DNA of 64,000 nt, from the NCBI RefSeq assembly GCF_964204645.1, contig NC_134027.1:16028485-16092484 (forward strand), in the 5' to 3' direction. Every line of letters starts with the position of its first letter. Positions within the stretch are counted from its first letter, which is position 1. The position numbers were made by a program, and so were the translations under genes. Below, piece after piece: positions 4,580 to 42,156 of this stretch. The notes under the pieces were generated by a model. The model was not told where the DNA came from. It searched no databases and was given only the letters and a program-made list of their open reading frames with translations. This DNA is from Tubulanus polymorphus. Taxonomy: Eukaryota > Animalia > Nemertea.

Positions 4580-5857
4580 TGAGGAATCACGTTTTTTCTT
4601 GGGTACAAAATAACATTTTGCAATAAATGGACGAGATTTGGACTTGTTTGAAAAACAAAGTGATGCTGGACATTTCGTTCCAGCGGACGAGTTTTTAAAA
4701 AATATTGCACCTTTCATGAAATGGTATGAGGAGAACAAGGTGGTTCCTCGACCAAATGTTTGATATGTGCACATGCATGTTTTAAAAAAATAAATGTAAA
4801 TATAATTCTAAATATTTGTGTTGAAGTTTTTTGCTCGCTACCTAACCACTGATTCTTGTTTTTTTGGGAAGCGAGTAGGCGACGCTAGCGCTAGGCCACA
4901 TCGGTACACGGTACACGGTACAAGAAAAAAACATGGACTATTTTCTTTAAAATCTTTTAAGGTTTATGGTAAAAGAGTATGAAAAATCTTCGCACCGTGC
5001 ACCGCACTGTGTACCTTAAGGTATAGTAGCCAGAGAGACCCCCATATTTTTATGCCTCAGCGCCACTTTATCGACTATTGGTCATTTTTGGAACTATTCA
5101 TTTTTCAACTTTGGAAACACAACTCTGCCGCTGCTAAGCCACTATAACATTGGTAATTCGACAAGACTTACACGATTTGGCCCTGCCGGGCTGGGACATT
5201 ATGTCTTGTCATACTCAGGGCCGTTGTGGCCTAGCTCTAGTGTCGCATCCACGCTTCCTAAAACAAGAAACAGTGGTTGACGGCGCGGGATTTTTTGGAC
5301 TTGTAATTTTCTCTGATCCCACATGTCGAATCGGTAGAGACTTTCCATAGACATTCATTTTGTTACCCAAATGCAGCCTGTGCAGTAAAACGTCAGTTTT
5401 TCTAAATATCTTTGGTACGTGGTTAGATTTTCTGGGTACAAATAGTTTCCTCACCATGTTTTTATAAAAACTATGTGTATCATTTCAAAATGCCTGGACA
5501 ACAAGTAACTCAAACTATTAAAGCCATCCGGGATGAAGATTATCTCATCCTAGCTGAAAATCTCTATCTCTGAAACGGCCTTGGTCAGAAACCGTCAGGT
5601 GACAACCACCTAGTAAGGAAAGCTCGAAGAAGTCAGGATTCAACGGAATTGGTTGCACAATGCGGGCGGATTTACAAACGTCTTTTAGTGTGAGGGACCA
5701 CCAACCAACGATTAAACTTTGCAAAATTCAGTGCTATCCAAACCAATCTTTTTGGTGAACCATCAACCTACAGAATCGTGGATGAAGAAGGAAGAATTAT
5801 CCAGCCGGTCTGAACAACAAGACCAGGAATAGACAGATTACTAACCAGGTACCCCCT

Positions 5858-7500
5858 TTCCCACACTGGAATTTCTTTTAAACTTTACAAACATGCTTCT
5901 GTCTGTCGATTGATTAATATTATTCCAAAATAAAATTGTAGTTTTTCATCCAAGTTCTAATGTTAGCTTATTGCGCATGCGTTAAGTGAACCCTTCCCTG
6001 CTACACCCCCTTCCCACATAGAGATTCGTTTTAAACTTCACATACGGACAACCAGTCAATATTCCAAAGTAAAATTACAGTTTTTCATACAAGTTCTCGA
6101 TGTAGCATACTGCGCATGCGCGAGAACCACCATGTTTTGTCCGCCATGTTCTAGCTTCATTCACTGCGCTGACTTTCTACTGAAAGGACGTATCGAGATT
6201 TTCTCCGGCCGACAAATCGAATTATTTTTACCTCTTTCCACACCAGGATTATTGTGATTCTTGGATATAGCATCTATCTAGTGTCGATACACATTTTGGT
6301 GAGTTAAAATTTCAGTTTTTCCTAAAATCTTGACTTTGTAGACCATTTTATGCGATTTTTCTTGTAATATTGTCAGAGTTGCATGTACTATGGTTTGCAG
6401 GCTTCCCACAGTTGGATTTCGCTATAACTTTGTATTTTAACTTGTTTTAACATGCTATGAACGCATTCGCCGAGAAAATTCAGTTTTTCTATGAGGTTTT
6501 GATTTTTCGAGGGATGCCTTTGACAACCCTTGACCCTAGCTGAACAAAATTTCAAAGAGCATCTTCCTACACTCGGATTTGCTTTAAACTTCGTATTTGA
6601 GTCTTTTATGATGTTCTATCATCGATTCCAAAGAGAAGATGCAGTTTTTCTCCGAGGTTTAGATTTTACGTGAAAGGGGCCCTGACCCCTTAAACCCCAA
6701 TACATATCTCTGCCTTCCCACAGTTTGATTTTCTCAAAAACTCAACAAATGACATCTAACCATAGAACATAGACGATTCCAATCAAAAGATTGCAGTTTT
6801 TCATCGGGAGTTTGTCTTTTCCACTACTGCGCATGGGCAAGGGTGACCTCCTGTGTCTAATAACCCAACTTATACAAAAATCACACACACTTGGATATCG
6901 ATGGAACTTTGTATAACTGCTTGTTTTCAGGTTTTTCTAAATATTTTATAATTTTTCATTTTGGGTGTTTTTTTGGCTCACTTGCGCCCCAGATCCCCCC
7001 ACCATAGAAAACATGGTTCCCACACTGGGATCGAATTGAAACTTTGCACACATCATCTCTATAACGTATCTAGCCCATTCCACCAGAAAAATTACAGTTT
7101 TTCATCAAAGCTTTCGTTTTACCATACTGCGCATGCGCAAAGTTGGCCATCTTGTGTCCACCACGTTCTCAATTCATTTCCATTCTGTCTTTCAGACCGT
7201 ACGGATCTACCCGAATTCTGTGCTATCATTTGGATTATTCTACACCAGTTCCCACAGTTCGGATTACCATTAGAAAACTATTGGTGAGTAGACATTTCAG
7301 TTTTCTACAAATGTTGACTTTGAGACGATTTTTTATGTTCAATTTCAGGAAAGTTGTGAATTTGTCATTTGGTTATTTGCTAGAATACCATGTTCCCCTA
7401 CTGCGATTTGCCTCAAACTGTGCATGCGTGCTTATTTTTGACCGATAGACACGATGGTGAAATAATATTTCAGTTTTTCTCAAAAATAAAATTTTTGAAA
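5858..7500 (+). repeat. Array of about 10 degenerate units (spacing about 135-230 bp) with conserved boxes TTCCCACA..GGAT / AAACTT / CAGTTTTTC
   Basis: Unit starts at about 5858, 6011, 6235, 6403, 6564, 6715, 6881, 7017, 7249, 7393. Distance from box A to CAGTTTTTC is 78-79 bp in six units. Confidence 0.8.
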
Positions 7501-7704
7501 AAACTTATAGTTAATCCCTGTTGATCTGTTCGGTATGAATAGCGATCCCAAAATTGCTCAGGGTTTTAGAAGTAGGTTTGGCAGTATTCACGTTCTTATA
7601 CCGCTTTGTGTTCTAATGTTCAATCACGTTGATTCTATCCACTCCATTTTCAGTACCAAAACGCAACACATCGATATATAAATTATCTTTGGCAAATTTC
7701 CAAT

Positions 7705-9060
7705 ATGAAGCAATATTGTGTTCTTTGTGAGAAAGACATAGCTTCGAGTTTTCCACGCCACCTGAAAAGCTTTCATCGCATTACGGAAAGAACTATAACA
7801 TTATTCGGAAAAGACTTCAAGGTAGGTAGAAAATCACGTCTGAAATCATTCACGTTTTTGAATCAAACTTTACATGGATTTCATTACTTCACCTCAAATC
7901 ATGTCTAAAATAATTATCGGTTCACACTCATACTATATATTTAACGGGGAGATAATTTTTGCGAGACCTCCCCCCATTACAAGTAAAATCGTCTGGCGTT
8001 AGACCAGTAAAATGTAAAGAGTACGCTTATATGCGGTTCCCGACGTGGAGTGGTTAAAGTCCAACTTCAAATCACGTCTGAAATCATTCACGTTTTGAAT
8101 CAAACTTGATAATCGTAATCGATGTAAATCAAATCCTGATCACGTCTAATATCATTCGCGGTTAAAATCACATGGATTTCATTATTTCATCTCGCATCAC
8201 GTCTAAAATAATTGAGATTTAAACTCACACCGTATAGACTAAAGTGATTTTGTCTTTTGTTTCAGAATATGGGAAAACACAAGGACGAAATGGAAAAGAT
8301 TCCGTTGGTCAACAGATCAACGGTATTTACAAAGTGTCCGGTGGCGGACTGCCCCAAGCTTGTGAAACAATTGGGTCCCCACCTACAAAGCAGTTGCCAC
8401 AATCTGAAGCAAACAGACGCCAAGTACAAAGAACTAATGTGTGAAGGGAAAAAAGCAGAATATAAAATCAAAAAAGAAGTGAACGAAGAACATCGTGAAG
8501 AAGAACGTGGCGCAAATGACGAGGACGATGTAGGTAACGAAATTGATAACGATGAATTAGTGGATAATGAAGAGAATGATGTAGAAGTAGATGGTGTTAT
8601 GGACGATACAATGATGGAGAGTGATGATGATTACATCAACGAACACGCGATAGCTAGACGATCACATGAAAAAACACCACAAAAAATTGCACACAAAAAG
8701 AAAGCTAAAATAATGGACGATGATTATGGAACAGACAATGATAATGATGACGAAGATTATGTCGATGATGGTGAGGTTAAGAATGATTCAAACGATTACA
8801 AAAATGCAGGAGCAGGACAGTCACACAGAAAAACGACATCAAAGTCACACAAAAAGCATAAAGTACCTGACAATTTGAAAGAAGAACTTGCCGCTTTGTT
8901 CAAGAATGAAATAAAGAAGAAAAATATTAGAATTCAGGACGTGCGTACAAAAATGAACAATTCGGTACTTCAACAATTCATAACTTTGTACGGACACGAT
9001 AAGAATATCATGGAAAAAAGATGTTATGATATTGTTCGAGGGATGTATAGAACAAAGTGA
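7705..9060 (+). CDS. Spliced Zn-finger protein paralogous to the adjacent recombinases but lacking the catalytic domain (exons 7705-7821, 8266-9060)
   Basis: Exon 1 is 39 codons (CVLC..PRHLKSFH) ending AAG|GTAGGT. Acceptor TTTTGTTTCAG|AAT at 8265/8266 is phase 0 and in frame. Exon 2 has CPVADC..HLQSSCH, an acidic tract and a helical C-terminal domain. Confidence 0.7.
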
Positions 9061-9261
9061 CTTTTGTCACAATTTTGTAAAGTCGCATCGATGAATATGC
9101 CGAAGATAATAAACTTCCATCGCGTGATTAAAATCGATTTTCTGACTTAATGAGGTTGTTGTACACCAGCACACCCAACAGATGGCATTGTTGTGCATGG
9201 GTCCAATTTTACACTGAAACAGCCCAAAACTAACCGGTTATTTGCTAATATTTCAAAAACG

Positions 9262-9541
9262 GTTGACCAAATCAGCCAACATGCTGTGGGAAATTTATTT
9301 GTTATTATCTAACGCATGTAGTTATATTATTTTTAGTACTCTTGTATTATCTGTATAACCTGCACTCTCTTGAGAAATTAACATTTTTTGGGACTTAGCG
9401 TAAAAAATCATTCAAAATTTTAACGATATTTCAAATGAGCACAGCTTTTACTGTAGCACCAAACGTACTTAAATTTATATCAAAATGTTCAGAATCAAAT
9501 TTTGAACAACTTTTTCACAGCATGTTGGCAGTGATTTCAAC
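9262..9541. repeat. Imperfect inverted repeat, possible MITE/DNA-transposon remnant
   Basis: GCCAACATGCTGTG (9275-9288) and CACAGCATGTTGGC (9516-9529) with imperfect extension; non-coding. Confidence 0.35.
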
Positions 9542-9654
9542 TAATAAGAAAGTTATAAGGCAAACAGTGACATTTTCTATACTATTTTTAATGTAGCCAT
9601 GACCCATAGCACAGTAACGCCCCTAGTGATATTAGTTCTGCAAGAGCCCCATTC

Positions 9655-11185
9655 TTTCACGTCTCAAGTCATAATGCTCTTTCCCATCAACGTCAAATCA
9701 CTCGTGTCTAAACTCACCGTCGGCTAGTTGTTGAACGTTAAAAAACAAATCATATCTCAAATCATTCACGTCTCAATTCACAGTCGCCTACTCGATTCGC
9801 GTCTCAAATCATTCACGTCTCAACTCCGATCAATGTCGAATCACGTCTCAAATCATCAGCGTCTCAAATAATTTGCGTCTCATATGATTCGTGTCTCAAA
9901 TCACACTCCGATCAAAGTCAAATCACGCCTCGAATCATTCGCGTCTCAAATCACAGTTGCTTTTTACAGTTCATAGTCGAAATTCAGATCTCGTTTCATT
10001 GTCTCTTTGGTCAAATTCGAATCACGCCTCAAATCAAATCACGCCTCAAATCAAATCACGCCTCAAATCATTCACGTCTCAACTCATAAGCTTTTTCCGA
10101 TCAATGTCGAATCACGTCTCAAATCATCAGCGTCTCAAATAATTTGCGTCTCATATGATTCGTGTCTCAAATCACACTCCGATTAAAGTCAAATCACGCC
10201 TCGAATCATTCGCGTCTCAACTCATAATGCTTTTTCCGATCAATGTCGAATCACGTCTCAAATCATCAGCGTCTCAAATTCAGATCTCGTCTCATTGTCT
10301 CTTTGGTCAAATTCGAATCATTCGCATCTCAACTCATAATGCTTTTTCCGATCAATGTCGAATCACGTCTCAAATCACCAGCGTCTCAAATAATTTGCAT
10401 CTCATATCATTCGTGTCTCAAATCACACTCCGATCAAAGTCAAATCACGCCTCGAATCATTCGCGTCTCAAATCACAGTTGCTTTTTACAGTTCATAGTC
10501 GAAATTCAGATCTCGTCTCATTGTCTCTTTGGTCAAATTCGAATCATTCGCATCTCAACTCATAATGCTTTTTCCGATCAATGTCGAATCACGTCTCAAA
10601 TCACCAGCGTCTCAAATAATTTGCATCTCATATCATTCGTGTCTCAAATCACACTCCGATCAAAGTCAAATCACGCCTCGAATCATTCGCGTCTCAAATC
10701 ACAGTTGCTTTTTACAGTTCATAGTCGAAATTCAGATCTCGTCTCATTGTCTCTTTGGTCAAATTCGAATCACGCCTCAAATCAAATCACGCCTCAAATC
10801 ATTGACGTTTCAACTCATAATGCTTTTTCCCATCAATGTCGAATCACGTCTCAAATCATCAGCGTCTCAAATAATTTGCGTCTCATATGATTCGTGTCTC
10901 AAATCACACTCTGATCAAAGTCAAATCACGCCTCGAATCATTCGCGTCTCAAATCACAGTTGCTTTTTACAGTTCATAGTCGAAATTCAGATCTCGTCTC
11001 AAATCATTCAAGCCTGAAATCATTCACGTCTCAAATCACATTGGCTTCTTACAGTTCACAGTCAAAATTCAGATCTCGTCTCAAATCATTCAAGTCTCAA
11101 ATCATTCATGCCTCAAATGATAGTCATCTCTGTCTGCAACTCGCAGTATACATGCCAATCACGCCTCCAATCACTCACGCCTCAC
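9655..11185 (+). repeat. Satellite array I: 16-bp monomer AATCATTCRCGTCTCA with a 226-bp higher-order repeat
   Basis: ATTCGAATCA recurs at 10311, 10537 and 10763 (226-bp period); monomer variants throughout. Confidence 0.9.
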
Positions 11186-11569
11186 CCCTTCCCCAGAGTC
11201 GTCCTAGGTATATGTTGCGATATTTTCACGAGAGGATGAAGATATGTAAATCGACTTGAATCTTTGTTCTACGATATTTGCCATGGAAGGATTGAAAATA
11301 AAAACATTGAACGGTCCATTTGCACAGGACTAATTTTTAGTATTAGTGTCATGTAAAAGTTTGTTCAACGATAGCTGAACCGCACAGTATAGCGACAAGA
11401 GGCATGGTATCGATTTCTCTTTCAATTAGCTCACAGATCGTGACAAGTCGACTCAAGTGTCAAGTCAACTCAACCACACAATAAAATATCCAACCCTCCT
11501 CATTTTAGCGTCATTCAAACATCATTTTGTGGTTGTATTTTCACAGGAGTATTTTTGCGACATTGTATC

Positions 11570-14452
11570 ATGCCACCAGTGAAGAAGTCAAAATTGACAC
11601 AGAGAAAGTGTCTTTTTTGTGATTGTGATTTTGAATGCTCGTATAAAAATCATCTGCGTAAATATCACCGTTTCTCGTCTGAAGCTGCTACTAAATACTC
11701 TAAAGGTAAATATCTTATATTTCATCATTGTTCAATGTCATTGACGTTCTCTTCCTATTTTTTTCTAATTGACAGACGAATGTCAATCGTTTTCACTATT
11801 ATTGCCAATCACTATAATCACATGCAAATCACTCATCCAATCACTCACGCCTCAAATCATTCATGCCTCAAATCTTATTCGTTTATGTCTGCCTTTCAGT
11901 CTACACACCAATCACCCCTCCAATCATTCATGCCTCAAATCATATTCGTTTATATCTGCAATTCAGTCTACACACCAATCATTGAACTTTCAAATCATTC
12001 ACGTCTCCAATCATGCACACCTAAAAAATCATTAACGCCTCCAATCATTCACCCCTCCAATCATTCATGCCTCAAATCATATTCGTTTATATCTGCAATT
12101 CAGTCTACACACCAATCATTGAACTTTCAAATCATTCACGCCTCAAATCATTCACGCCTCCAATCATGCACACCTAAAAAATCATTAACGCCTCCAATCA
12201 TTCACGCCTCAAATCATTAACTCCTCCAATCATTCACGCCTCAAATCACTCACTCCTCAAATTATTCATGCCTCAAATCATTAACACCTCCAATCATTCA
12301 CGCCTCCAATCATTCATGCCTCAAATCATATTCGTTTATATCTGCAATTCAGTCTACACACCAATCATTGAACTTTCAAATCATTCACGCCACCAATCAT
12401 GCACGCCTCAAATCATTAATGCCTCCAATCATTCACACCTCAAATCACTCACTCCTCAAATCATTCATGCCTCAAATCTTATTCGTTTATGTCTGCAATT
12501 TAGTCTGCACACCAATCACCCCTCTAATCACTGACGCCTCAAATCATTCATCCTCAAATCATAGTTGTATCTGTTTACAACTCACATTCTACACAACAAT
12601 CACGCCTCAAATCATTCACGTCTTAAATCACTCACGCCTTAATTACAATCTACATGCCAATCACGCTTCTAATCACTTACGTCTCAAATCATACATGCCT
12701 CAAATGGCTCATACATAAAAGTTTTAAGAGACAATTACGCCATGAAATAAAAAATTCTGTCAAATCAAAATTATGCTGAAACTACAAATTGTATTGAACT
12801 TTCATTTTTCACTCCCTATATTGTTGCTTTATCATATATTTGTTAATTGTTATGTTTTCTCCATTGAAAAACTTGCTGTTTGTGAGATTATGGATACCGA
12901 ATAAACTAAAACTGAAACCATCAATCACACCTCCAATCACTCACGTCTCAAATCATTCATGTTTTGTTTTTCAGATGCAGCAGATACCAAAGCAACGTGT
13001 CCTGTTGAAGGATGTTTAGCAACATTTGATCGTCTGGACAAACATCTGCGCACGAAAAAACATGGCTTTGTTCCCGGTGATGAAAACTATCATCGATATA
13101 TGGCGATGACTCACAAACAAACGTCAACAAAAAACGTTACAGCGTCGGACAGGAATGGCGATAATGATGATGATGATGATGATGATGATGTTGATGAAGA
13201 TGATGATACTGAAAATGATGCTGCTGAAGAAAATGGAAGTCCAATGGTGGTGGTTGATGACGAAAGCGATGATGACATGGAATATTTTCCGTCAAGTGAT
13301 GATGATGACGATGATGATGATTATAATAACGTTGATGTGGGCATACCAGCAGAATTTCAGGCCGAAAATCGAGAATTCCAGCGGTGGCTGTCGACATTTG
13401 GTGGCGGTATGAAAAGTAACGCCGTCTCTTCTCAAACCGCGAAAATGGCGAATATTGTGTTTAAAAATTTCGGCAATAAAACATTCACAAAATCGTCATT
13501 AATTGACAATTTAAATCAGATTGAACAGAACTTTATTCCAAACATGCTGAAAACAAAACAGGCTAGTACGGTGAAAAACTATTTACTTTCTTTTCAAAAG
13601 TTTATAAAATGGGGTATAATAAAACAAAAGCACTGGGTTTTGAAAGATTGTCACGAGATCATCAACGAGCACGTAAAATTGTGGAATACAAGCTTGAATA
13701 AAATGATTTCTACGCGTGCGCATGAAAAGAAAGAAATTCACAAACGTGCAATTGTTACTGTCAAACAAGTACTATCGTATTTGAATAGTGATCGTGCTAC
13801 CAGAGCAGGCACCATTCTACGTACGTGTCATGAGGCTGCGACAATTTCACAACAAGATCATACAAATGCCCGGAATCACCTGATTATGCTATTAGTACTG
13901 GCCAATGCCACCAGGGCAGGACCTGTAATCAATTTGAAAATCAGTGACGTTTTGAATGCCCAGGATAATGTACATAAAAATCGTTGTGTAATGACAGTGC
14001 TCGTACATAAAACGGAACAAAAGTATGGTAAGGCACAAATTTCGCTCTCAACGAATGAGTATCAATTACTACGAGCATACTTACAACATATTCGTCCAAA
14101 TGTGCCAGCTCAATTCAAGGATAAGGATGCCGTCTTCATCACATGGTCTGGAAGGCAAATGTCTCAATCAGAAATTGCCAACGTTATAACGAGAGAATTT
14201 ATTAAGGTCGGTGGACGTAATGTTCGTGCAAGTTGTACAGTGATGCGAAAATCAATTGTTTCAATTTTGTTGCAAATGAACTTGGGAGCACGCACTGAGC
14301 AAGACCTGGCGACACTGATGAAACATTCGCAAACCATGCAAAAACGTACGTACGACATTCGCGTTGCCGACAACACGATGGCTAAGATGAGTGGACTCGT
14401 TTTTAAAATTATGTCAGGTCAAGATTTGACCGAACAAGATTTAGACGAATAA
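11570..14452 (+). CDS. Spliced Zn-finger tyrosine recombinase (YR1; exons 11570-11705, 12975-14452)
   Basis: Exon 1 CLFC..KNHLRKYH ends AAAG|GTAAAT (phase 1). Acceptor TTTTTCAG|AT at 12974/12975 is phase 1 and in frame. Catalytic motifs NATRAG (R), VHKT (K), CTVMRKS (R), LMKHS (H), RTYD (Y). Confidence 0.8.
11800..12960 (+). repeat. Satellite array II (16-bp monomer AATCATTCACGCCTC(A/C)) filling the YR1 intron
   Basis: Tandem AATCATTCACGCCTCA / AATCATTCATGCCTCA variants plus the recurring block TCATATTCGTTTATATCTGCAATTCAGTCTACACACC. Confidence 0.9.
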
Positions 14453-14734
14453 TCATAGTCGCATCTTCAATCCATAGTCTACGACCTTTTAGGCATGTTT
14501 TCTGTGTGTGCTGTTGATATACTTATTGTCGTTCATTTCTTGTAGATTTGATGTAAACGTGTATAGTAACACTAGTGAATATCAATATCTAGTAAATACT
14601 GAAATTTCAGAAACCAGGACAATCTATTTTATGCTGAAATTTGTACTCGTGTTACCACCAACATGATTTGGGAAATCCCCACAAACACAGAATTTTTGAT
14701 AAATCCGCTTGCCGGAGCCAAGAAGTTATAACAT

Positions 14735-15050
14735 GTCATTCACGTCTGAAATCGCTCACGTCCCAAATCATAGTCGCTTCTTCAATCCATAGTCTACATG
14801 TCAATCACACCTACAATCACTCACGCCTAAAATCATAGTTGCTTCTCCAATTCATATTCTACACGCACATCGCGGATGAAATATTTTATGTCTCAAATAA
14901 TCGCTTGTGTCTACAATTCATGGTCTATATGCTTTTCAAGCATTGAAGCATTCACGTCTCACCCATACCTCAAATCATTTACGGATCAAATCAATCAGGT
15001 CTGAAATCGTAATCCCTTACACGCGAATAACGCATCAAATCACTCGCCCA
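14735..15050 (+). repeat. Degenerate copies of the same 16-bp satellite downstream of YR1
   Basis: TCATTCACGTCTGAAATCGCTCACGTCCCAAATCA, AATCACTCACGCCTAAAATCA, CATTCACGTCTCA. Confidence 0.65.
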
Positions 15051-15074
15051 TGAAAAACATATATATATTAATAT

Positions 15075-15507
15075 ATCTAGATACATAGGCAATGTCACAA
15101 AGTCCAGGTACATGTTTCCATACTGCAGGACAGACACCCTCAAATATTCATTCCTTCCCCAAGCAGTCCGCATTTGGAACACCCTTCCTGACTGGGTCAT
15201 CCAACAAGATTCGATAGAGGGCTTCAAATCTGCCCTTAATCGATATGAACCCTAAGAAACAACAGTCCCACAAACCATGCGTACAAAGTGTACGATGGCG
15301 GTTCCATGCGTACGATGTGTACGATGGTGCCAATGTCAGACAAAACAACGCATTTTTAATTTATAAATGTAAATATATTATTTATTCAATATTTTTCTAG
15401 CTCATGCAGCTTTTTCTTGTTCATGCATCTTACACCCCATGTGGGATATTCCTCGTCTACGAGGTTGCCACACGATAGGTAAAGAAGAAAGAAGAGAAGA
15501 AGAAGAG
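15075..15507 (+). mobile_element. 5'-truncated CR1/L2-group LINE, 3' end
   Basis: Reads YCRTDTLKYSFLPQAVRIWNTLPDWVIQQDSIEGFKSAL, the typical ORF2 C-terminus; followed by a 3' UTR and a (GAA)n-like tail. Confidence 0.8.
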
Positions 15508-15790
15508 TCCAATGCATTTTCCTTTAGATGGCGGCCATTTTTGTTACGATTTTACTCCAGGCACGGCAACCAGTTTGTTGGTTTTGGTTGCCGTGCCTGG
15601 AGTAGCTTGTTGTCTAACTTTTTTGGGCGATTATATTGTATAGATGTAAATGAAAATGGTGTCTAGTAGGAAAATTTCCTCAGAAATCGATTGGAATAAT
15701 AATCAAGACGATATGACAAAAGGTTACAGAGTTATGTGATCGTGTGCAATGATGGCTGCGATGGACTGGACCGGATATCATAATGAGCGA

Positions 15791-16080
15791 TCATCATCAT
15801 CCTGGTTTATTTTATACAGGCCTGGATTAATCCTCTCCAGAGGGTGGGGCCTGTCTGACTGAGCGAAGTCGTCCTCTCCATTTAGAGCGGTCGTGTGGGT
15901 CGTTTGGTGTCAATCCGAGTGACATCCTGTCTTACCTAACCCCCTGCTCCCATGTTTTCTTGGGTCTGTCAGGTTTCTTCTTTGCTGGAATCACCTCTAC
16001 TTGTCGCACCCTCGACGTCCAGCCAGTACTTCGTTCTACATGACCAAACCATCGTAGCCTGTTGGTCTACGATGAACTGA
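15791..16080 (-). mobile_element. 5'-truncated RTE-clade LINE, 3' end
   Basis: Minus strand reads RLRWFGHVER...KKPDRPKKTW...DRSKWR; ends in a short (GAT)n tail. Confidence 0.8.
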
Positions 16081-16330
16081 TTCATTTGTCTAATATATAA
16101 AAAGTCGCCATAACTTCACTTGCAGGAATCCCAATATGACAGCCGTGTGTTCATCTGTGTTTGACACGAAAGAAGCTTCGTCCCACATGAACTTTGTCGC
16201 CGAATCTCCACGACCAGCCTGCAAAATAGAAAAAAACATTAAGTTCATAAATCGATTGGTACAAAATTCGGACACATACACACACACACAAGAATCTATG
16301 TGAAAATGTATCTGTTTTTGACAATCTTTT

Positions 16331-16826
16331 TTGCAGGATCGTTTTTATACCCATCTACCTATTCCAAAAATGCGGAAAAACAGGGACAATGAACAAGAAC
16401 TGTTGAAGATATTCGGACAGAAATCGTCAAACACATGGGGTACCATTGGCGGTGTATCGCGTGTCGATGTAGCTACAGGAGACTATAAAATGTTGTTAGG
16501 CACCGATATCTATGCCAGTGTTACATTACCCCTTTTTACAAAACAATCGAGACCGGATAGACGGAAAGTTGTACAAGATAAATTTACACTTGTACAATTC
16601 GTTGGAAATTATTAGTGTGCATAGAAATCTAGTCGAGCTGCAGAGGGTGTTAAAAAATACCAATAAACACCACGCCGACCAAGAAAGACAACTACAATCA
16701 TTGAAGACTGACAAGAGGCGAGTAGCTATTATTTTAGGTTCCGTGTTTGGTGGAATATTTACTCTGATCGTCACAACGACTTTAGTGTTTTTTGGACTTA
16801 GGCAGTACAGACACAGCCGACAATAG
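16331..16826 (+). pseudogene. Frameshifted membrane protein with C-terminal TM helix
   Basis: Overlapping ORFs 16331-16615 and 16512-16826; TM segment RRVAIILGSVFGGIFTLIVTTTLVFFGLRQYR. Confidence 0.45.
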
Positions 16827-17130
16827 AACCAGGAGATATAAAATCTCATTAGACAGGTCGAAATTATACTTCTACCATATATACAGGAGTTATTACCCCT
16901 TTTACTGTATACACGATACAAAGCAACATGTCTTTGCTAACAGCTGTGATTTGTGCGGCGGCACTGCTGGCTGCAGCCATACCCCACTGATAGACAAACG
17001 AACAAACGAACGAACTTCTGTATTTTTATAATATTTGGCTGCTGTAAAGGGAAGCCATATTATGCGATTACGATACGAACGACTGAGCGACTGAGAATAA
17101 ATATTATCCAGGCAAAAAGCTAGTATAATA

Positions 17131-18783
17131 ATGGAAACCTCCGAACACACAGAAAATAAGCATCGGGTGGTCTATCGATATCCATGTTCATTGTGTGAAA
17201 AGAATACCACAAATCTACCACGTCATTTGAGAGAATTTCATAAGTTCGATCGCCGCGCATCACTCAAGTTTACGCAGCAACAAAAAGCACAAAACCAACG
17301 AAAAATCAATAGTAATCAAACTCTACACCAGTGTCCGGTTGAAGATTGTTTCAGCGCTGTTAAACGTATTGATAAGCATCTCGGCAACAAACATAAATTC
17401 AAGCGATCAGATCCAATTTACCGTCACTACATGAACTTGGCTAAATGCGAAAAATCTGCCTTTGGATCATCGTCGTTGTGTAGTAAGCAATCTACTCAGC
17501 AGCACTGCAAATCACAGATAACCAACGTTAAAAGCAGCGTAGATAGTGGTTCATCTGATGCATGCGCAAGTGCGAGCGTACAATCTGATAGCGTTAATAA
17601 TCATCAATTTGCCAACGAGATTACAACTTTTGGACGATGGCTACAGACGTTTGGGGGCGGTGAGAAAAACGAACGTCAGGGCTTGCAGGCCGTAAAACAT
17701 GTTCAAAAAATTATTGATATCTACGGTCATGATTTCAGTGCTAACCTCGTCACTGTAAAATTACAAGAGATCGAAAACAAATTCATTTCTCCATCTCTCA
17801 AAACAAAAACAGCCAGTACGGTTAAAAACTACTTACTTGATTTCAAAAAGTTTGTGGAGTACGGAAAACTTCTCGATAAAGACTGGATTACATCAAAAAC
17901 AGTTGAACGGATCGTTAAACAAATCCAAATTTGGAATTGCTCGTTGCAGAAGAAAATCATGGAACGGGCGGCTGTAATGAAGGTCAAACATCGACAAGCA
18001 CTTTTAACAACGAATCATATCAAGCTATATTTGAAAGGCAAACGGGCAGTCATTGGTAACAAGATTTTACGCGATTGTCCTAACGACAAAAAAAGATACA
18101 AGAAGGATACCGATGAACGTCATCGACATAAAAATCGACATTGTTTCATCCGAGCCCGGAACTATCTGATTATGTTATTGAGTCTCAACAACGCGACACG
18201 TTCTGGACCTATAATAAACCTGAAAGTTGGTGAAGTAGATGCAGCTCTGGATAACGTTTACCTTGACAGACATGTGGTCAATGTTGTACAGCATAAAACA
18301 ATGTCGCTCTACGGTGCTGCCCAACTATCGTTAAATTGTTATCATTTCAAACTTCTGAAGGCATTCATCGATCACATTCGTCCTCTGATTCCAAGTTTTG
18401 AAGAAACGAGACACAGTCACCCAACATTCAATGTCTTCTTGTCGTGGAGTGGTCGGACTTTGAACCAGAGTCAAGTCTCCAACATTATTTCCAGTGAACT
18501 TTCTGCGTCCTCGAACAAAGCAAGTCGAACGAGTTGTACGGTGCTCAGAAAATCTGTGGTGTCAACAATGCTAGGATCAGATCTCGGTGCCAGTAACGAA
18601 CGTGATTTGGCTAATTTGATAAAACACTCTGACGCGATGCAGAAAAGAACATACGATGTACGGTGTTCTGATCGTAACATGGCCAGAATGTCTAATATTG
18701 TATGGAAATTTATGACCGAGGGACAAGTTTCTATTGAAGAGTTACAGCACCAGCACCAACATCAGCACCAGCACCGACACTGA
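17131..18783 (+). CDS. Intronless Zn-finger tyrosine recombinase (YR2)
   Basis: Two fingers CSLC..PRHLREFH and CPVEDC..DKHLGNKH. Catalytic motifs NATRSG, QHKT, CTVLRKS, LIKHS, RTYD. Clear paralogue of YR1 (shared WLxTFGGG, ASTVKNYL). Confidence 0.85.
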   Translation: METSEHTENKHRVVYRYPCSLCEKNTTNLPRHLREFHKFDRRASLKFTQQQKAQNQRKINSNQTLHQCPVEDCFSAVKRIDKHLGNKHKFKRSDPIYRHYMNLAKCEKSAFGSSSLCSKQSTQQHCKSQITNVKSSVDSGSSDACASASVQSDSVNNHQFANEITTFGRWLQTFGGGEKNERQGLQAVKHVQKIIDIYGHDFSANLVTVKLQEIENKFISPSLKTKTASTVKNYLLDFKKFVEYGKLLDKDWITSKTVERIVKQIQIWNCSLQKKIMERAAVMKVKHRQALLTTNHIKLYLKGKRAVIGNKILRDCPNDKKRYKKDTDERHRHKNRHCFIRARNYLIMLLSLNNATRSGPIINLKVGEVDAALDNVYLDRHVVNVVQHKTMSLYGAAQLSLNCYHFKLLKAFIDHIRPLIPSFEETRHSHPTFNVFLSWSGRTLNQSQVSNIISSELSASSNKASRTSCTVLRKSVVSTMLGSDLGASNERDLANLIKHSDAMQKRTYDVRCSDRNMARMSNIVWKFMTEGQVSIEELQHQHQHQHQHRH

Positions 18784-19315
18784 CGCGCAAGACGACCAAC
18801 TAGAAGGCGCAGCAGCAGACTCTACACGAGTGTCGTCCCATCCTAATGTCGGTACTCCTCCACCCACAAAGATTATTTATTATGCGTTAACACACATGCA
18901 AGATGGACATCCCGTATGCAAGCCGCACATCGTAGATCCCAAAGCTACCATCGCTACTAAATCAGGCGTACCCGATAGACTAAGGATCGAGCGGAATCGC
19001 ATAGATTCGTTCAAAAAATTCCCAAGAACGGATTTTTCTACAACGAAAAAAAACAAGGACATCAAATGTGCTTTCTGCGGCGGAGTCTTATCGGTACCCA
19101 AAAACGTTAGAAAATTCAAAATCACAGCAAAGCACAAACGAGCATTTCCTACCTGCCCTCTAGTACTAAACCTGGAAGTGGGCAACACACCGTGCCAAAA
19201 CAGAGATGACGAACCAGATAACGCTGTTATCGAACCGAATTTCATGAAAGTTGGACAAAACGTCCAGCACGGAGTCAAACCCAGCCCGTACAAAAGGCTA
19301 ATAGAATGCAGCTAA
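18734..19315 (+). CDS. BIR-domain (IAP-like) protein
   Basis: RIDSFKKFP...IKCAFCGG...KHKRAFPTCPLV..VGNTP, i.e. CX2C...HX6C; first ATG at 18896. Confidence 0.7.
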   Translation: MKSYSTSTNISTSTDTDAQDDQLEGAAADSTRVSSHPNVGTPPPTKIIYYALTHMQDGHPVCKPHIVDPKATIATKSGVPDRLRIERNRIDSFKKFPRTDFSTTKKNKDIKCAFCGGVLSVPKNVRKFKITAKHKRAFPTCPLVLNLEVGNTPCQNRDDEPDNAVIEPNFMKVGQNVQHGVKPSPYKRLIECS

Positions 19316-19354
19316 CGATAAACATGCGTCTTGCCATGATACGGATCGGGTTGT

Positions 19355-22500: not shown

Positions 22501-22734
22501 TTCATTTGATCCAGGACAACAGATGTAATTGTGTCTTTGGTAGCATTAAAAACCACACCTAAATTTGGATTCAAAAAAGAGATATCAATTTGGTGCCGTA
22601 TAAATTGCTGAGGATTCACGAGTGTCATGAAACAGGTAATTTCCCGACTTTAACATTGTAGCCAAATCTTTTGGTGGTGGGGTACCCAAATTCATTTCAA
22701 AATACAGACAATTTGTTTTCTTGTTAGCTTCTGT

Positions 22735-23361: not shown

Positions 23362-23688
23362 CTTGAAATGTGTGTATGTCTAAATGATTATTAACATTTG
23401 GTATAGTATATGGTATAGTATATGGTATAGTATATATAACCCCTATATGAAAAAATCCCTCTGCGCGGAAAAACGCCGTTGTCTCGATTGAAATGGACTA
23501 AGGTAGTTGGCTGCATGTCTTTTGCAAAGTTTCAGGCTCATCGGAGTTTGGGAATGTGTAGATGGCGAGGCGATTAAGGGGTGTACAGGGGTAGGGTCAC
23601 CCCCCCCCCCATATGAAAAATTTTCATCTGCGTCATTCAGCCGAACATAGAGAACCACTGCGTGTGCCTGTTTATCTAGACCACCCTT

Positions 23689-35476: not shown

Positions 35477-38400
35477 ATGAAAAATTTACAAAGCGGGGGT
35501 GCTGTTACAAGTAGACAAAGTGTGAATGAAGAAAAAGAGTTTTGGAACAGAAAACTAAATCACAATGATTCTTCAACAACCACCGATCTCAATATCCACT
35601 ACTCTAACGTTTGTCAAGAAGAACATTTGGTCTATTCAGACCCCAGGCAAAAATTAGACAAAGACGGTGTACCCCAACAAGTATTGAAACGATGTATCGA
35701 AGAAAAACAACACATCGACCGATTAACCATCGACGGTATATACACAGATGCCAGTCTCTTTGTAAAACCGATGGTTTTCGATTGCAGGCGTCTGACGTCC
35801 AATTCAACAATCATAAACGGTCATCGTGCCCTGTACTTGTACTATCATGGACCAAGAAATGCAATCTTTATACGATTCAAATCGCAAAGTCGTGCATTAA
35901 GCTATGCCAACACAAGAACGATAACGAAGTTTCTAAACTATTTACGAGGACCGTACGGTGGTTGGCTGAAATCGATTGTCGATGCAAAACTAACTGTGAT
36001 CAGGACATTCAAACAGGCAGTGTGCGGACCAAAACATGCCATCAAACTAATATGTACCGGCAGCGGCCCAAGTCCTTACAAGTTATTGGCCGCGTTGGAA
36101 AACGGACCCTACTCCGAAGATTTTACCCACGAGATTCACGATACGGCCATCACTGGCTATACCCGTCACATGGTTTCGAAAAGTACCAAACCGATAGGTG
36201 TTATGCGCAGAGATACTGCCAGACAACAACAATGCTCTTCTGAAATTGAAATTGACCAACATAAAACTTGGGACTACGAGACACTTTGTAATGGAGACAA
36301 TAATCAAAACACATCTGCCAACAATACCCAAACCCACGGCTTTTATAACGAAGAGGCAATGTCTTCGTTTGATGCGACTTTACCCCACATTAAATCTCGA
36401 CGTGAAAAAGACGATGAAATTAAATATTTTCAAAGTCATGTCTACTACAAAGACATCACGTTTCCCTACAGCGATAGGGAGATTGAGATTGTAGAACCGC
36501 TGCCAAATGACGACTCCGAGTGCATGGACATCGATGAGGAAGAAAATGAGCTGTTGGGTTCATTAGATTTTCGTCAACTTGAACCGAACACGTACAAGGG
36601 CAAATTATTGACGAAATTAGCGAGAAAGCTGGCCGAGACTATAGATCTGTGCTGTGAAAACGATGTCAAAGATCCACTCGGCGCTGATGAAGTCTACTAT
36701 GACGACGATACCCAAATTATACCCGAACATTGGTATCATATGGATGCTGAGAAAATGAACGAAGAAATCACTAAAGTTTACAGAGAAGAAATTCGGCGCA
36801 AGGCTGAGACCGAACGAATCAACGTAACCGAGCGTTTTGAAGACGCTGGGGCAGATTTCACCGAAGATGATGTTGACTACTCTATCAACTACAAACGAAA
36901 AGAATGGGATTATACGAGAAAGCTTTCCGGCTATATAATGAAAAGACAAGTCCACCAATTAGCCGAATTGTTGAAAGAAATGAGAGATGAACTAAACGAT
37001 GCTGCAGAACCTCTCATAATATCATGGGACAAGGACTTGAAACGTAAAGTGTTGCACCCACTTACGAAAAATGTCAACTTGTACCAATCTGACGATGTCT
37101 TCTCCCATTTTGTGTTTGAAATGAGCAGTATGGCTAGCAGAAGTGGTGTGTTGAACGCAGAATGCATTGTCACCTCTGATATTATCGACCAAGTCCGGCT
37201 GAGACTTGTAGAAATTACATCAGCTCTACGAAATGTGGCCACTACGTTTTGGAGAACAGAGATAGTCGCGTTAGAAGACAAAAATGTCTCAAAACAACGC
37301 AACGAAACACGAGAAGAAATTGCCAAGACGATAGTAACCAATTTAGAGTGCGTGTCGATCGATTTGGAAACAGGCTTTGAAAAAAATGCCATACCCACAT
37401 CACAATGTGATCCAATCATATCTGCGGTAGCATCCAAGTTCAATCACGAGAAAACGCCACAAGGCAACTATACATTTCAAGAACATGTTTTATTCCTAGT
37501 CAAGCCGCCGAATGATCCAAAAACCGGCAAGCCTCCACCAAAACAAAAAACGGAAGGTAGTGGGGACTTGGAAAAAATCATCGAAGATGTAAAACTCCAC
37601 ATAAAAGGTGATCCAGACGATGAAGAGGTGCAAGAGAAACTTAATGCGTTTCTTAAAAAAGTCGACTTGAACATGATACCCAACGAAACGGTTTTTATTG
37701 AAGAATGCGACACGGAAGCAGAGTTGATTGTAAAAATGACGCTCTATCTAAGAGACTGTCCCATACTGATCGGTTACAACAGTACTTGTTTCGATTGGAG
37801 TGTTTTCGAAAATAGAATGCGGGCTACGGTTCCCTGTGTTAGCGGCAAAATTGAACCTAAGGAATACGTGCTAGAATTGAAGCAAAAACGCAACAATAAA
37901 ACTGCCAACAAAATCACAAAACCTAAGAGCATGTTCAACAATGCATTCCACCTCTGTCTATCACATCGAATGGATACCAAGGCAAAATTGGTCTTCAAAG
38001 TCAACGGTGAAGAACAAGCAAAAGTTATAGACAAGAGAAAACGCGACTGGGAAATGATCAGAGGTAATCGACGCATAGCTGGTGGCACGTCCACGAAACT
38101 GACGGAAATCATGAATTCGGAAGTTGACAAGGAAGCGGCTGATTTCGTCAAATATTTCGTTCTACCACCCGATATACCCAGAGAGGTCTCATACGAGTGG
38201 TGGAAAAGTACCAGATCGAAAAAAAGTTCCGGTGCTGTCAAAAAATCCACAGGCAAGCGTAAACGAGCACCTTCATCCACTAGCAGCAACAATCCGTCGG
38301 GTAAAAAACGACTTCTTCAAAACGGTGCTTCAACCTCGATGAGTGGCTTAAATAACAACACGATCAGTGGCTACGAATCGGTCGATAGCACTACAAGCTG

Positions 38401-41400
38401 CAGTACAACGACGAGTAAAAGACGGCGCAAGGGCGATACTACAACTGACAATAGCGACGATGATAGCGTATTTTTCGATGACATGGACAATCATTGTGTT
38501 GATGTTGCTTTCGAGGAATTTGCCAATGATCCTGAGGACGAAGGATACCTGTCTGAAGATGAAAAAACCCAACAGATGGCTGCCATAGAAGGTGTGCAAG
38601 GCGTAAACGATATTTTCAAAAGAATCAAGTACATTGCCGTCAACAACAGCACCTATGTGGACATGATGCCGTTGGTGGCACAGAATGCCGCCAAGATGAT
38701 TGATTTATCCACAGCCACGTTTCGTCAACTGGGCATAAAGAAATTGGAACACGAAAAAGTAAAGTACACGAATCTATTGGATACTTATCGGAACGGTGAA
38801 ACCGACATCATCCTAGAGTACAACTTGATCGATGTGTTACTACCCGCCATCATGTACATCCAAAAGGAATCTTTGGCTTTCACCACAACAGTCTGTATGA
38901 AAACGGTGCAACCACCGCGGACGATTTACGAAGACGCGCCAATGTGCATGGTCAGTGGAGTCCTAGCCAACAATGGGACTTGGTTCGATAAAACCGTCAT
39001 GCCTGGCACATCCAAGAAAATTACCGAAGAAGACATGAAGAAACCGGGCTTCAAATACGACGCCATAAAACACTTTGAACAGTTGAAACAACCTGGCGGC
39101 ATTCGAGGAGCAGTACCCGAGTTTATAGGCACACCTTGCGCTTGTGTCGATGCCACCAACATGTACCCAAGGGCAATCATGAAGGAAAATGTTGGCATGA
39201 CCGGTATGGTCACGATGGAGTACATCAAGCGAAATAATTTGAAACGGGGAGTTCACTACGACATGGAGATGTTAACTACGGTCGATTTAGATGGGAATAT
39301 CGTCAACTTGGTGGTGGCAAAAATAAAAGCTGATCAATACAAAACCATCGAAAGTTTCACCTGTGACGATATGTTGGGCAACAGACTACACTTTAAACGA
39401 CTCATGGCGACCGAAAAAGATCCCTTCAAAAAGGCCAACTACGATCAAAATCAAAAGGCTTTAAAACTTTTGCTGAATATAGTCTATGGATTTTGTGGTG
39501 TCATGTTGGCCCTCATATCGGCACTTGTTACCAAGTACGGACGAAATCAAACTCTTAGAATGGCACATATATGGCAAACGTGGTATTCAGACTATATTGC
39601 AAAAATAACTCAAAAATGGTATGCGGAAAAAATTGCCAATGCCGATACAGATTCTGACTTTCTACTCTTCGGTTCAGAGTTAGAATTTAGCGACTTGTCG
39701 ACTTTTGCCAAAAAACTTGGCCTCCCTGAGAAAAGCGGCACAAAGACCATAATTACCCACTCTTTGACAATCGTTGACGAGTACTTGGAATTTGCCAACA
39801 GAGATCAGGCGCCAAGTAAATTCCTCTTCGAAAAATACTTTCATCGTGGAACAGTCTGCCAGGGACAGAAAAATTACTGCGGACCCAAGGTGGAAAAGGG
39901 TGGTGGAGGAGAATATGTTGTATCGTTTCACGTTGCCGGGCTAGTCGGAATGAAAAATACTGCAACCAAGCTAAAAACTCAAATGCAGTACGGCAGCATG
40001 TACCTGTTGCTGGACAGAGATCCTATCGGTTCACTTACCTACGGCGAAGAAGTCTATCATATGGCCTACAGAACAATTCTCATCGAAGAAGTCATAGATG
40101 AAATAGAGACAAAGTTAAACCAAATATTATCTACCGAGGAAAAAGACGACCTGCGCCAACAACTCTGCTGTGGTCTAAAACTGTTAGACCCGAGCAAAGT
40201 CCAGAGCAAAGAAAAAGTCGGTGATATGGAAAAAATGAAAACTGTCGCAACGAAAGCAGCCGCCAAGGAATGTAAAAAGAAAAATTTACCCCTAGACAAG
40301 GCACCGATGTATGTAACGCTCACCAGATCGTGCCAAGCACAGATTAGCGGTACTCAGAAGAAATTGTTGGACACAATTCTGGTCAACTGCCCGATAGAAA
40401 AGGAGGAAATAAAACGCAAAGAAGAGAGTCAGAAAATGAAAAAGTTGACTTCAGCTGATTTGACAAAATTTGACAAGACGATGGTAGCCGATTCAGAAAG
40501 ATACGGGTTCAAGTATACCCCGGACCAATACCGAAAAACCAGAACTTTCAGATCGGCTATCAAAGAAATGACCGACATGCGAGACACTTTGATGTTGAAT
40601 ACATCCATAATGACAGTGAACAAACTCAAAGAAGAAGCCAAACATCTCATACTCACCATAGAAGACAAAAAAACATCGTCCATAGGCAGCAGTATGAAAC
40701 ACGGTGCTATTGCCAATAAACATAGCAAAATATTCTCAACCATTCAACAGACCAAGTCCATGACAGATGGTGAAATAAAACGAAAACAACTCAGAAACAA
40801 CTTAGTTGGTAATCTCAGTGAAAGGGCACTCAACTATATGAACAATTTGGACTCATACCCTATGGATCGGATGTGTTTGCGAGTTATGATGTCTGGTAAC
40901 TACGCAATTTCAACTTTTGATGATTTTGCGGCTATCGGTGAACCCACCACCACAGATCAATTGATTACCAAGTGGGCAGAAGAGTGCGTGGATGGCAACT
41001 CTTCACCGATACTATCCACGCACAAGTTGAATCTGTCCACAACAGATGAAACACACAAGACCGTCGATCTGTGGGCACTCTACACAAATCGAGGTCGAGA
41101 ATTGATGGACTTTAGATGGTTCGTGATATCAATTCAACACTCTACCTTATACACGATACATAAATCCGGAAAAGATTTCATCAACAAAGTCACATCTGAG
41201 CCGAAATGTGTATCGATCGGACCAGACTACAACACTTGGTTGAACGAACGCGTGATGTTAACTCAGAAGAAAAAATCTCCAATCATACCCGACTACTGCA
41301 TAGTTGATATGTACCCGTACACGATTCAAACAATGACCACGCCGTTTATCACAGACAACGTTAATGGCTATTCTGAATTAGTCAACAACGATTCGTTTTG

Positions 41401-42136
41401 TCTAAATCGTCAAAACACGTTCGCCTACAAATGTAATGGTGATCTCTTGTTATCCGCACTTCAAAAAATGCGTGATATCGTGGATATAGGCAAAAATGTC
41501 TATAGAGTTGTACAATTTACCCCGATTCTCAACTCAGCCACATTCAGTGTCAACACGACCACATTTGATCACAAGAAAACTAAAAGGTCGCGATTACACT
41601 TTAAAAAGCCGCTCCAAGACATTGTAATTCCATGTGAAATCGTAAGAGACGATGAAAGACAACAAAGTCACTGGGTCCGCAGACAACCTGGTTTATGTGT
41701 GTACATTGACGAATTGATCCCGTTACTAGAGCAAAAGTTGAGCAGATCACTGAAAAACCCTGACAACTGTCTGAAAATGGTGTTTTTTCAGGATTTGATG
41801 GAGTTGGAAATATCATGTGTTCCAAAAAATAGATATGGAGGGACAACCATGACTCCCTGTACTATTCCAATTACCCATGTCAAAGACCGAGCAGTAGATA
41901 GTGAGATATTCGGAAAGTTGCATACCCCTCGTGAAAAAATGTCGTTTGGTACCGCTCAGACAGTCACAGCACCGACACCAACCACATTACTGCCTCAAGC
42001 CTCAACTTCAACCACGGTACAATGTACAGATTCGGACTTTCTGGACGATGATGATGTGATATACATAGAGACAAAAAACGTTACAAGAAATAGTAACCTG
42101 GTACAAACAAAATTGTGTTTCGTACCAAAATTGTAA
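35477..42136 (+). CDS. polB: Family B DNA polymerase, large viral type
   Basis: ExoI SIDLETG, ExoII GYNSTCFDW, ExoIII EYNLIDV; pol motifs VDATNMYP, QKALKLLLNIVYG, NADTDS; 2219 aa. Confidence 0.95.
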   Translation: MKNLQSGGAVTSRQSVNEEKEFWNRKLNHNDSSTTTDLNIHYSNVCQEEHLVYSDPRQKLDKDGVPQQVLKRCIEEKQHIDRLTIDGIYTDASLFVKPMVFDCRRLTSNSTIINGHRALYLYYHGPRNAIFIRFKSQSRALSYANTRTITKFLNYLRGPYGGWLKSIVDAKLTVIRTFKQAVCGPKHAIKLICTGSGPSPYKLLAALENGPYSEDFTHEIHDTAITGYTRHMVSKSTKPIGVMRRDTARQQQCSSEIEIDQHKTWDYETLCNGDNNQNTSANNTQTHGFYNEEAMSSFDATLPHIKSRREKDDEIKYFQSHVYYKDITFPYSDREIEIVEPLPNDDSECMDIDEEENELLGSLDFRQLEPNTYKGKLLTKLARKLAETIDLCCENDVKDPLGADEVYYDDDTQIIPEHWYHMDAEKMNEEITKVYREEIRRKAETERINVTERFEDAGADFTEDDVDYSINYKRKEWDYTRKLSGYIMKRQVHQLAELLKEMRDELNDAAEPLIISWDKDLKRKVLHPLTKNVNLYQSDDVFSHFVFEMSSMASRSGVLNAECIVTSDIIDQVRLRLVEITSALRNVATTFWRTEIVALEDKNVSKQRNETREEIAKTIVTNLECVSIDLETGFEKNAIPTSQCDPIISAVASKFNHEKTPQGNYTFQEHVLFLVKPPNDPKTGKPPPKQKTEGSGDLEKIIEDVKLHIKGDPDDEEVQEKLNAFLKKVDLNMIPNETVFIEECDTEAELIVKMTLYLRDCPILIGYNSTCFDWSVFENRMRATVPCVSGKIEPKEYVLELKQKRNNKTANKITKPKSMFNNAFHLCLSHRMDTKAKLVFKVNGEEQAKVIDKRKRDWEMIRGNRRIAGGTSTKLTEIMNSEVDKEAADFVKYFVLPPDIPREVSYEWWKSTRSKKSSGAVKKSTGKRKRAPSSTSSNNPSGKKRLLQNGASTSMSGLNNNTISGYESVDSTTSCSTTTSKRRRKGDTTTDNSDDDSVFFDDMDNHCVDVAFEEFANDPEDEGYLSEDEKTQQMAAIEGVQGVNDIFKRIKYIAVNNSTYVDMMPLVAQNAAKMIDLSTATFRQLGIKKLEHEKVKYTNLLDTYRNGETDIILEYNLIDVLLPAIMYIQKESLAFTTTVCMKTVQPPRTIYEDAPMCMVSGVLANNGTWFDKTVMPGTSKKITEEDMKKPGFKYDAIKHFEQLKQPGGIRGAVPEFIGTPCACVDATNMYPRAIMKENVGMTGMVTMEYIKRNNLKRGVHYDMEMLTTVDLDGNIVNLVVAKIKADQYKTIESFTCDDMLGNRLHFKRLMATEKDPFKKANYDQNQKALKLLLNIVYGFCGVMLALISALVTKYGRNQTLRMAHIWQTWYSDYIAKITQKWYAEKIANADTDSDFLLFGSELEFSDLSTFAKKLGLPEKSGTKTIITHSLTIVDEYLEFANRDQAPSKFLFEKYFHRGTVCQGQKNYCGPKVEKGGGGEYVVSFHVAGLVGMKNTATKLKTQMQYGSMYLLLDRDPIGSLTYGEEVYHMAYRTILIEEVIDEIETKLNQILSTEEKDDLRQQLCCGLKLLDPSKVQSKEKVGDMEKMKTVATKAAAKECKKKNLPLDKAPMYVTLTRSCQAQISGTQKKLLDTILVNCPIEKEEIKRKEESQKMKKLTSADLTKFDKTMVADSERYGFKYTPDQYRKTRTFRSAIKEMTDMRDTLMLNTSIMTVNKLKEEAKHLILTIEDKKTSSIGSSMKHGAIANKHSKIFSTIQQTKSMTDGEIKRKQLRNNLVGNLSERALNYMNNLDSYPMDRMCLRVMMSGNYAISTFDDFAAIGEPTTTDQLITKWAEECVDGNSSPILSTHKLNLSTTDETHKTVDLWALYTNRGRELMDFRWFVISIQHSTLYTIHKSGKDFINKVTSEPKCVSIGPDYNTWLNERVMLTQKKKSPIIPDYCIVDMYPYTIQTMTTPFITDNVNGYSELVNNDSFCLNRQNTFAYKCNGDLLLSALQKMRDIVDIGKNVYRVVQFTPILNSATFSVNTTTFDHKKTKRSRLHFKKPLQDIVIPCEIVRDDERQQSHWVRRQPGLCVYIDELIPLLEQKLSRSLKNPDNCLKMVFFQDLMELEISCVPKNRYGGTTMTPCTIPITHVKDRAVDSEIFGKLHTPREKMSFGTAQTVTAPTPTTLLPQASTSTTVQCTDSDFLDDDDVIYIETKNVTRNSNLVQTKLCFVPKL

Positions 42137-42156
42137 TCATTCCACATTGCAGAATC

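Follow-up and report, generated by a model that had tools for sequence, protein, structure and literature searches.

Complementary domains in three C2H2-finger tyrosine recombinase paralogues: a possible viral integrase system with a core-less partner in Tubulanus polymorphus

Why would a locus that encodes two tyrosine recombinases (YRs) also carry a third gene of the same ancestry that has no recombinase core? The question is raised by a stretch of 64,000 nucleotides from Tubulanus polymorphus (assembly GCF_964204645.1, contig NC_134027.1, positions 16,028,485 to 16,092,484, forward strand), which is referred to as the window. Its left part contains a repeat array followed by the three genes, here called gene A, YR1 and YR2; all coordinates are listed in Table 1. 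An initial annotation, made from the sequence, took them for co-oriented paralogues with two C2H2-like fingers each. This is confirmed, as the finger motifs occur in every gene and all five finger-to-finger alignments score better than each of 300 shuffles. We consider it on balance probable that these three finger-YR paralogues, with their complementary domains, form a viral integrase system in which gene A acts in trans as a DNA-binding accessory factor.

YR1 and YR2 belong to the tyrosine recombinase superfamily, having the core-binding and the catalytic fold. YR1 matches the Pfam family PF00589 above its cut-off (1.3e-7). The structure model of YR2 (mean pLDDT, the confidence score of the model, 66) matches YRs of phages, nucleocytoplasmic large DNA viruses (NCLDV) and nudiviruses, as well as XerA, XerH and Cre, at 9-16% identity (Foldseek: XerA with E 2.5e-4, Cre and XerH similar). 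Sequence searches against solved structures gave no match for the YR alignment or for three other open reading frames (ORFs). The two proteins share 39% identity. Their catalytic motifs had been reported as retained, and indeed R, K, R, H and Y are intact in both, with a threonine replacing the histidine of the HxxR motif (five of the six residues of R-K-H-R-H/W-Y). A reading of this threonine as a sign of inactivation was rejected, since threonine is usual at this position in the family (117 of 135 rows). One related locus was found, a metagenome contig of 1840 bases (L001) with a YR1 relative at 67% identity; 221 of 379 differences between the two genes are at third codon positions, and synonymous divergence (dS) is saturated. 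In viral contigs, there is no related locus for YR2, the YR alignment, the polymerase described below or a distant family member.

A profile search with the YR family retrieved 1692 clusters at E<=0.001 (111 at 1e-30), and the best 150 of the 1692 were used. Among non-gap rows, the catalytic columns are nearly invariant (R 150/151, K 151/151, R 138/138, H 135/135, Y 126/127). The usual architecture of the family is fingers, core, linker and C-terminal domain. This last domain, the tail, is present in 85 of the 128 relatives with a near-complete core among these best 150, a count that is partly given by construction, as the tail profiles came from some of those proteins. The tail is missing from the YR1 clade (3/3 rows) and from the YR2 clade (4/4 rows), which have a support of 100/100 each. 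The tail-less set consists of YR1, YR2 and their five closest relatives, in two distinct clades; among the other members of the enclosing tree group, six of eight have the tail (tree of the top 34 rows). A six-frame search of the window with the tail profile revealed no downstream tail exon for either YR1 or YR2.

The initial annotation also held that gene A has no recombinase domain. We agree: fingers and tail are present, the core is absent, and gene A is a true non-catalytic paralogue. When a tail profile from 37 relatives was searched against all six frames of the window, gene A was the sole match (1.9e-10, the next best being 1.1). Its last 74 residues match the tails of four near relatives (phmmer E 9e-9 to 2e-5), and a seven-sequence tail profile built without gene A recovers gene A (E-value in Table 1) and neither YR1 nor YR2. 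The tail is modelled as helical (pLDDT 60-80). Its fold matches are winged-helix and helix-turn-helix (HTH)/Myb-like DNA-binding domains (VIA Z 4.7-5.3, not significant), so that an HTH/Myb-like identity is a weak lead from a model. Gene A and YR1 each have a predicted in-phase intron that separates finger 1 from finger 2 (7822-8265 and 11706-12974, respectively); they have this intron position and a 16-bp satellite in common. By their predicted sequences, gene A (fingers, linker, tail) and YR1/YR2 (fingers, linker, core) are complementary parts of the usual architecture. With two YR clades that have no tail and a gene A that has the tail and no core, it looks as if the ancestral enzyme had been divided over three genes, in support of a non-catalytic partner.

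How such a system could operate is suggested by its parts. An ancestral four-part integrase gene may have been triplicated and then subfunctionalised. From their fold and residues, YR1 and YR2 would cut and join DNA for integration and excision, or for genome resolution, possibly as two enzymes in the manner of XerC/XerD. Judging from the complementary domain content, gene A could supply in trans, or compete for, the targeting or architectural DNA-binding role of the lost tail, and it may thereby set site choice or direction, as a helper or as a brake. XerC/XerD pairs consist of paralogous YRs, and integrases with a recombination directionality factor have a small non-catalytic DNA-binding partner. 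The trio resembles both by analogy, with two paralogous YRs and a small non-catalytic partner. It differs in that the partner appears to derive from the recombinase gene itself, and both the cooperation and the sites are putative. It is tempting to go further and to propose a three-component switch from one gene, where a YR1/YR2 heteromer acts on the dyads of the repeat array and a recombinase-derived directionality factor chooses between integration and excision in an uncharacterised lineage of animal viruses. We consider this quite improbable; if true, it would be the first switch of the lambda Int/Xis type in an animal virus.

The window is densely coded, with large ORFs that mostly have no introns. 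A DNA polymerase of 2219 residues, BIR-like and galaxin-like genes, and insertions resembling miniature inverted-repeat transposable elements (MITEs) and long interspersed nuclear elements (LINEs) lead us to infer a large DNA virus that is likely resident in a eukaryotic, probably animal, chromosome. Host-type insertions in the window are counted in favour of a virus integrase. The polymerase has only two relatives among 5.8 billion clusters, both unnamed and at 52% identity, and the virus therefore seems, from its sequence, to be an undescribed lineage. Among the matches of the polymerase, the delta type ranks first, weakly. Most large ORFs at 27.6-63.4 kb have no family match.

That the module belongs with the virus, as had been proposed, is borne out by raw reads of a further sample (X16) that is labelled as the same species. 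The depth is about 30-51x over the array, gene A, YR1 and YR2 and about 31-54x over the flanks, a comparison that leaves out the high-repeat stretch 9701-12759. In the left part, 2365 of 2669 reads have at least 99% identity. A few sites vary at 14-57%, as expected of several near-identical copies or of pooled alleles. Because depth is even over the module and its viral flanks, the module has not multiplied independently of the virus in this organism and is not a high-copy host transposon there. The initial annotation had set its viral module apart from an ordinary host transposon with many copies that lack viral flanks. In the same organism, the flat depth agrees with that distinction, whereas YR2-like contigs run into unlike flanks in two other organisms (B and C).

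Several points weigh against a viral integrase with a partitioned enzyme. To the built-in part of the tail count it must be added that, where relatives lack the tail, errors of gene calling in multi-exon genes could be the cause. None of the 333 candidates at E<=1 is an orthologue of gene A, so that the domain partition rests on one locus. Neither a capsid gene nor a marker of a virus family was identified among the ORFs of the window by Pfam and structure-sequence searches, and no virus-host junction or virus end lies within the 64 kb. Among 27 proteins of the YR family that were looked up, four clusters bear organism names, and all of these are distant and uncharacterised genes from four cnidarian genomes rather than viral genes. 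The trio is not obligate either, because a second YR2-like copy in the same organism and the YR2-like contig of organism C have unlike surroundings. The former, about 88-92% identical at about one-third of the depth, is on a contig of 11 kb whose upstream DNA differs; among the matches listed for this contig, there is none to YR1 or the intervening DNA. Organism C has YR1 at about 98%, accompanied by its 16-mers, on one contig and YR2 at about 88% on another, and the flanks are unlike. In organism B, the summed contig depth, which is not a copy number, is 519-721 for the array, 116-340 for the genes, 147 for the far-left viral segment (1-2953) and only 17-40 for the immediate flanks.

The copy and family data bear on one alternative in particular, namely that the module is a Crypton-type (CryptonV-like) YR transposon which rides in the virus or has repeatedly entered it, with the array as its cis-acting end region. 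Cryptons are eukaryotic YR transposons, and CryptonV occurs in cnidarians (PMC3212892, PMC8869645, PMC5753468, each consulted in part), where it is described as a target-specific group (PMC8869645). Like these element genes, the genes studied here code for a YR with an added DNA-binding domain (PMC3212892; PMC8869645), and the size of the family and the cnidarian origin of its named members suit such an element. So do the depth steps in organism B, where contigs also have a joint that skips 18744-20045, and the contigs of organism C, in which the right flank is uncovered. Against it stand the flat raw-read depth in the same organism and the viral segment of organism B, which is as deep as the genes, so that the low-depth flanks may be accessory genes. 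In addition, the module sits among viral genes at equal depth, its boundaries were not found, and neither terminal repeats (4-6 bp in Cryptons) nor a duplication was identified that would bound it. There is no Pfam match to DUF3504 or GCR1_C, and CryptonV was compared by its description. The contig patterns of organisms B and C are compatible both with variable accessory flanks and with a mobile module. We regard a Crypton-type transposon as unlikely.

A further alternative is that only the YRs matter. Gene A would then be a functionless by-product of a deletion, and both repeat families would be neutral, having arisen by slippage, with the unit of about 150 bp as a relic of the central repeats of a Helentron-type element. 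Broken genes and inserted elements do occur in the window, and the missing relatives of gene A are as expected of a by-product. However, the two fingers and an in-phase intron persist in gene A, and so does the whole tail, precisely the domain that is missing from both YR clades. For the repeats, the alternative can draw on a unit period that agrees with the monomer length (140-180 bp) of repeats in non-autonomous Helentrons (PMC7492417, consulted in part), and on 16-mers that are confined to non-coding DNA and missing from L001. The array boxes and their spacing are nevertheless kept among units of 34-64% identity and in a unit 16 kb away, and the array has no raw-read excess of the kind expected of a host repeat family. 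Taken together, this makes neutrality distinctly unlikely.

The array had been annotated as having a fixed spacing and as spanning 5.9-7.5 kb. It is real, but the spacing is fixed only approximately and the array begins farther to the left, at 5316. Seven box pairs with a spacing of 76-82 nt occur in 5250-7600 (1000 shuffles: mean 0.001, maximum 1). The T-rich box occurs eight times in this region and nowhere else in the window. There are 11 units, with a mutual identity of 34-64%, start-to-start distances of 134-232 nt (mostly about 150-170) and one gap of 542 nt. The boxes are 79 nt apart in six of the 11 units, and 68, 80, 82 nt or less in the others. The T-run box is part of a dyad (A-run, 6-nt spacer, T-run), and the palindrome TGCGCATG is found in several units. 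The boxes may resemble CSL and NRF1 sites. A twelfth unit lies 16 kb away, and contigs of two other organisms have an 88-nt tandem joint there. The unit is therefore dispersed and not private to the YR module.

The most likely reading of the array is a cis-acting viral repeat akin to homologous regions (origin or enhancer), with a dyad that might also serve as a recombinase site. The homologous regions (hrs) of white spot syndrome virus (WSSV) are clusters between genes; their units occur in either orientation and combine a conserved, imperfect palindrome with flanks that vary (PMC2855118, consulted in part). The units described here are shorter (about 150 bp compared to 250-300 bp) and far more diverged than those of WSSV, and there is one cluster with one or two extra units in 64 kb. 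The array units have no Rfam match and no tRNA, and only one of the 11 has a folding z below -2; RNA-gene, tRNA and integron-type hairpin readings were rejected for these reasons. The array pattern has 71 single matches in viral contigs, which were attributed to chance, as unit-profile scores are all <=7.3 bits.

In the full model of the initial annotation, the 16-mer or the 150-bp unit is what the fingers recognise, and the YR pair uses the units as recombination sites (dif-like dyads). The dyad arms do pair better than controls, with 5.2 of 8 positions in nine units (two degenerate units excluded) compared to 2.3 in 107 T-runs used as controls. On the two sides of the module and an accessory region there are units of opposite orientation, and the 16-mer is restricted to gene A and YR1. 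However, the dyad signal is of low complexity (A-run against T-run) and inherited through the common ancestry of the units. Classical YR exchange would be hindered by differing spacers, and the spacers are unlike among the units. The hairpin signal is confined to one unit, raw reads contain no rearrangement joint between array units, the 150-bp unit extends beyond the module, and 16-mers are absent near YR2. We consider this model highly improbable. A role of the cassette in latency control, which had been proposed as well, is speculative.

The confinement of the 16-mer to 7.8-15.05 kb is confirmed, with no match elsewhere in the window. All matches are on the plus strand: two in the intron of gene A, 32 between gene A and YR1, 33 in the intron of YR1, five after YR1 and none in exons. 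Higher-order blocks are 226 and 481 nt long. L001, the 1840-base contig with the YR1 relative at 67% identity, is free of 16-mers. Most likely, this is a minisatellite which spread, or was inherited, with duplicated introns.

The proposal of a new system was too broad, as C2H2-bearing YRs of endogenous nimaviruses have been published (PMC10871703). In the accessible text of that source, these YRs typically have a C2H2 domain and five of seven key residues, and they insert site-specifically (telomere, 28S). The likeness includes the N-terminal position of the C2H2 domain, an incomplete canonical catalytic set, a sometimes multi-exon structure, and the setting in an endogenous large DNA virus that is present in multiple copies and has BIR genes. 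There are differences: two fingers, two YR clades within one module and a core-less, tail-bearing third paralogue are found here, and no such partition is mentioned in the accessible text of PMC10871703. The window has no telomere run (one motif searched), no nimaviral name was attached to any of the 27 proteins looked up, and a nimaviral identity of the virus would be conjecture. Herpes-like viruses are also reported as integrated in invertebrates (PMC12373286; bioRxiv 10.1101/2025.04.19.649669, the latter with mobility genes; both consulted in part). No report of a core-less paralogue that completes tail-less YRs, or of a partitioned finger-YR trio, was found in a literature search largely without subscription papers, Repbase Reports and the supplements of PMC10871703. 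What is new here is the domain partition; C2H2-finger YRs in endogenous large DNA viruses are already known.

A finger-YR-tail enzyme that is split in this way separates the domains for study, and it offers a candidate eukaryotic directionality or targeting factor. It bears on the entry of large DNA viruses of animals into chromosomes, on their exit and on the control of direction. It also provides a domain map for a large, unnamed YR family of animal genomes, with a possible use in genome engineering.

Table 1. Features of the YR module and of its surroundings in the window
Feature	Position	Strand	Evidence or remark
Outlying repeat unit of about 150 bp	5316..5440	+	nhmmer 61 bits; box spacing 79 nt
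Array of 10 diverged units of about 150 bp: CCCACA box, then T-run box about 79 nt on	5858..7518	+	
Gene A: two C2H2-like fingers, acidic linker, family C-terminal domain, no recombinase core	7705..9060	+	predicted exons 7705-7821 and 8266-9060
16-bp minisatellite, in both introns and between/after genes	7842..15036	+	72 matrix matches
Helical domain at the C-terminus of gene A, homologue of the tail in full-length members of the family	8836..9057	+	E 3e-14, profile built without gene A
YR1: fingers, acidic linker, core-binding and catalytic domains, no C-terminal domain	11570..14452	+	predicted exons 11570-11705 and 12975-14452
LINE-like retroelement, 3' fragment	15788..16069	-	translation; skipped in contig of another organism
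Small multi-exon gene, likely single-pass membrane protein, broken near 16.6 kb	16116..16826	+	six-frame translation
YR2, intronless: fingers, core-binding and catalytic domains, no C-terminal domain	17131..18783	+	R357, K389, T470/R473, H499, Y508
Twelfth repeat unit of about 150 bp, opposite orientation	23480..23560	-	box spacing conserved; 15.1 bits vs <=7.9 in 10 shuffled windows
Family B DNA polymerase, 2219 aa (viral context gene)	35477..42136	+	Pfam 1e-15

YR1 and YR2 are not adjacent. The LINE-like fragment, which we take to be of the RTE type from its motif, and the broken membrane-protein gene lie between them and had not been mentioned in the initial annotation. To the right of YR2 is an accessory block (18896-22545) with a BIR-like gene, a galaxin-like repeat gene (Pfam 7e-20) and a Thr-rich, membrane-like ORF; it is mostly missing from the contigs of organisms B and C. 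To the left of the array, at 4844-5278, there is an element with terminal inverted repeats of about 60 nt. One part of this element occurs in a second, diverged copy in the same organism, and for this part the contig depth in organism B is very high.

Farther left, three consecutive ORFs in shifted frames (862-2765) look like one gene without a database match; from an E-x-K motif, the product is presumably nuclease-like. The N-terminus of the ORF at 57196-58100, which has no match in Pfam or the PDB, presumably follows the pattern of the herpesvirus large-tegument deubiquitinase. A palindromic MITE-like element of about 700 nt is present in two copies, 25 kb apart (23689-24400 and 48652-49342; 92-96% identical). 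A 20-nt repeat forms short runs in both orientations at four intergenic places in 24738-43008 (nine matches compared to 0.03 expected) and reads as a second dispersed repeat, hr-like or a MITE. Two unassigned ORFs (22735-23361 and 46050-46481) are paralogous and have an N-terminal motif in common.

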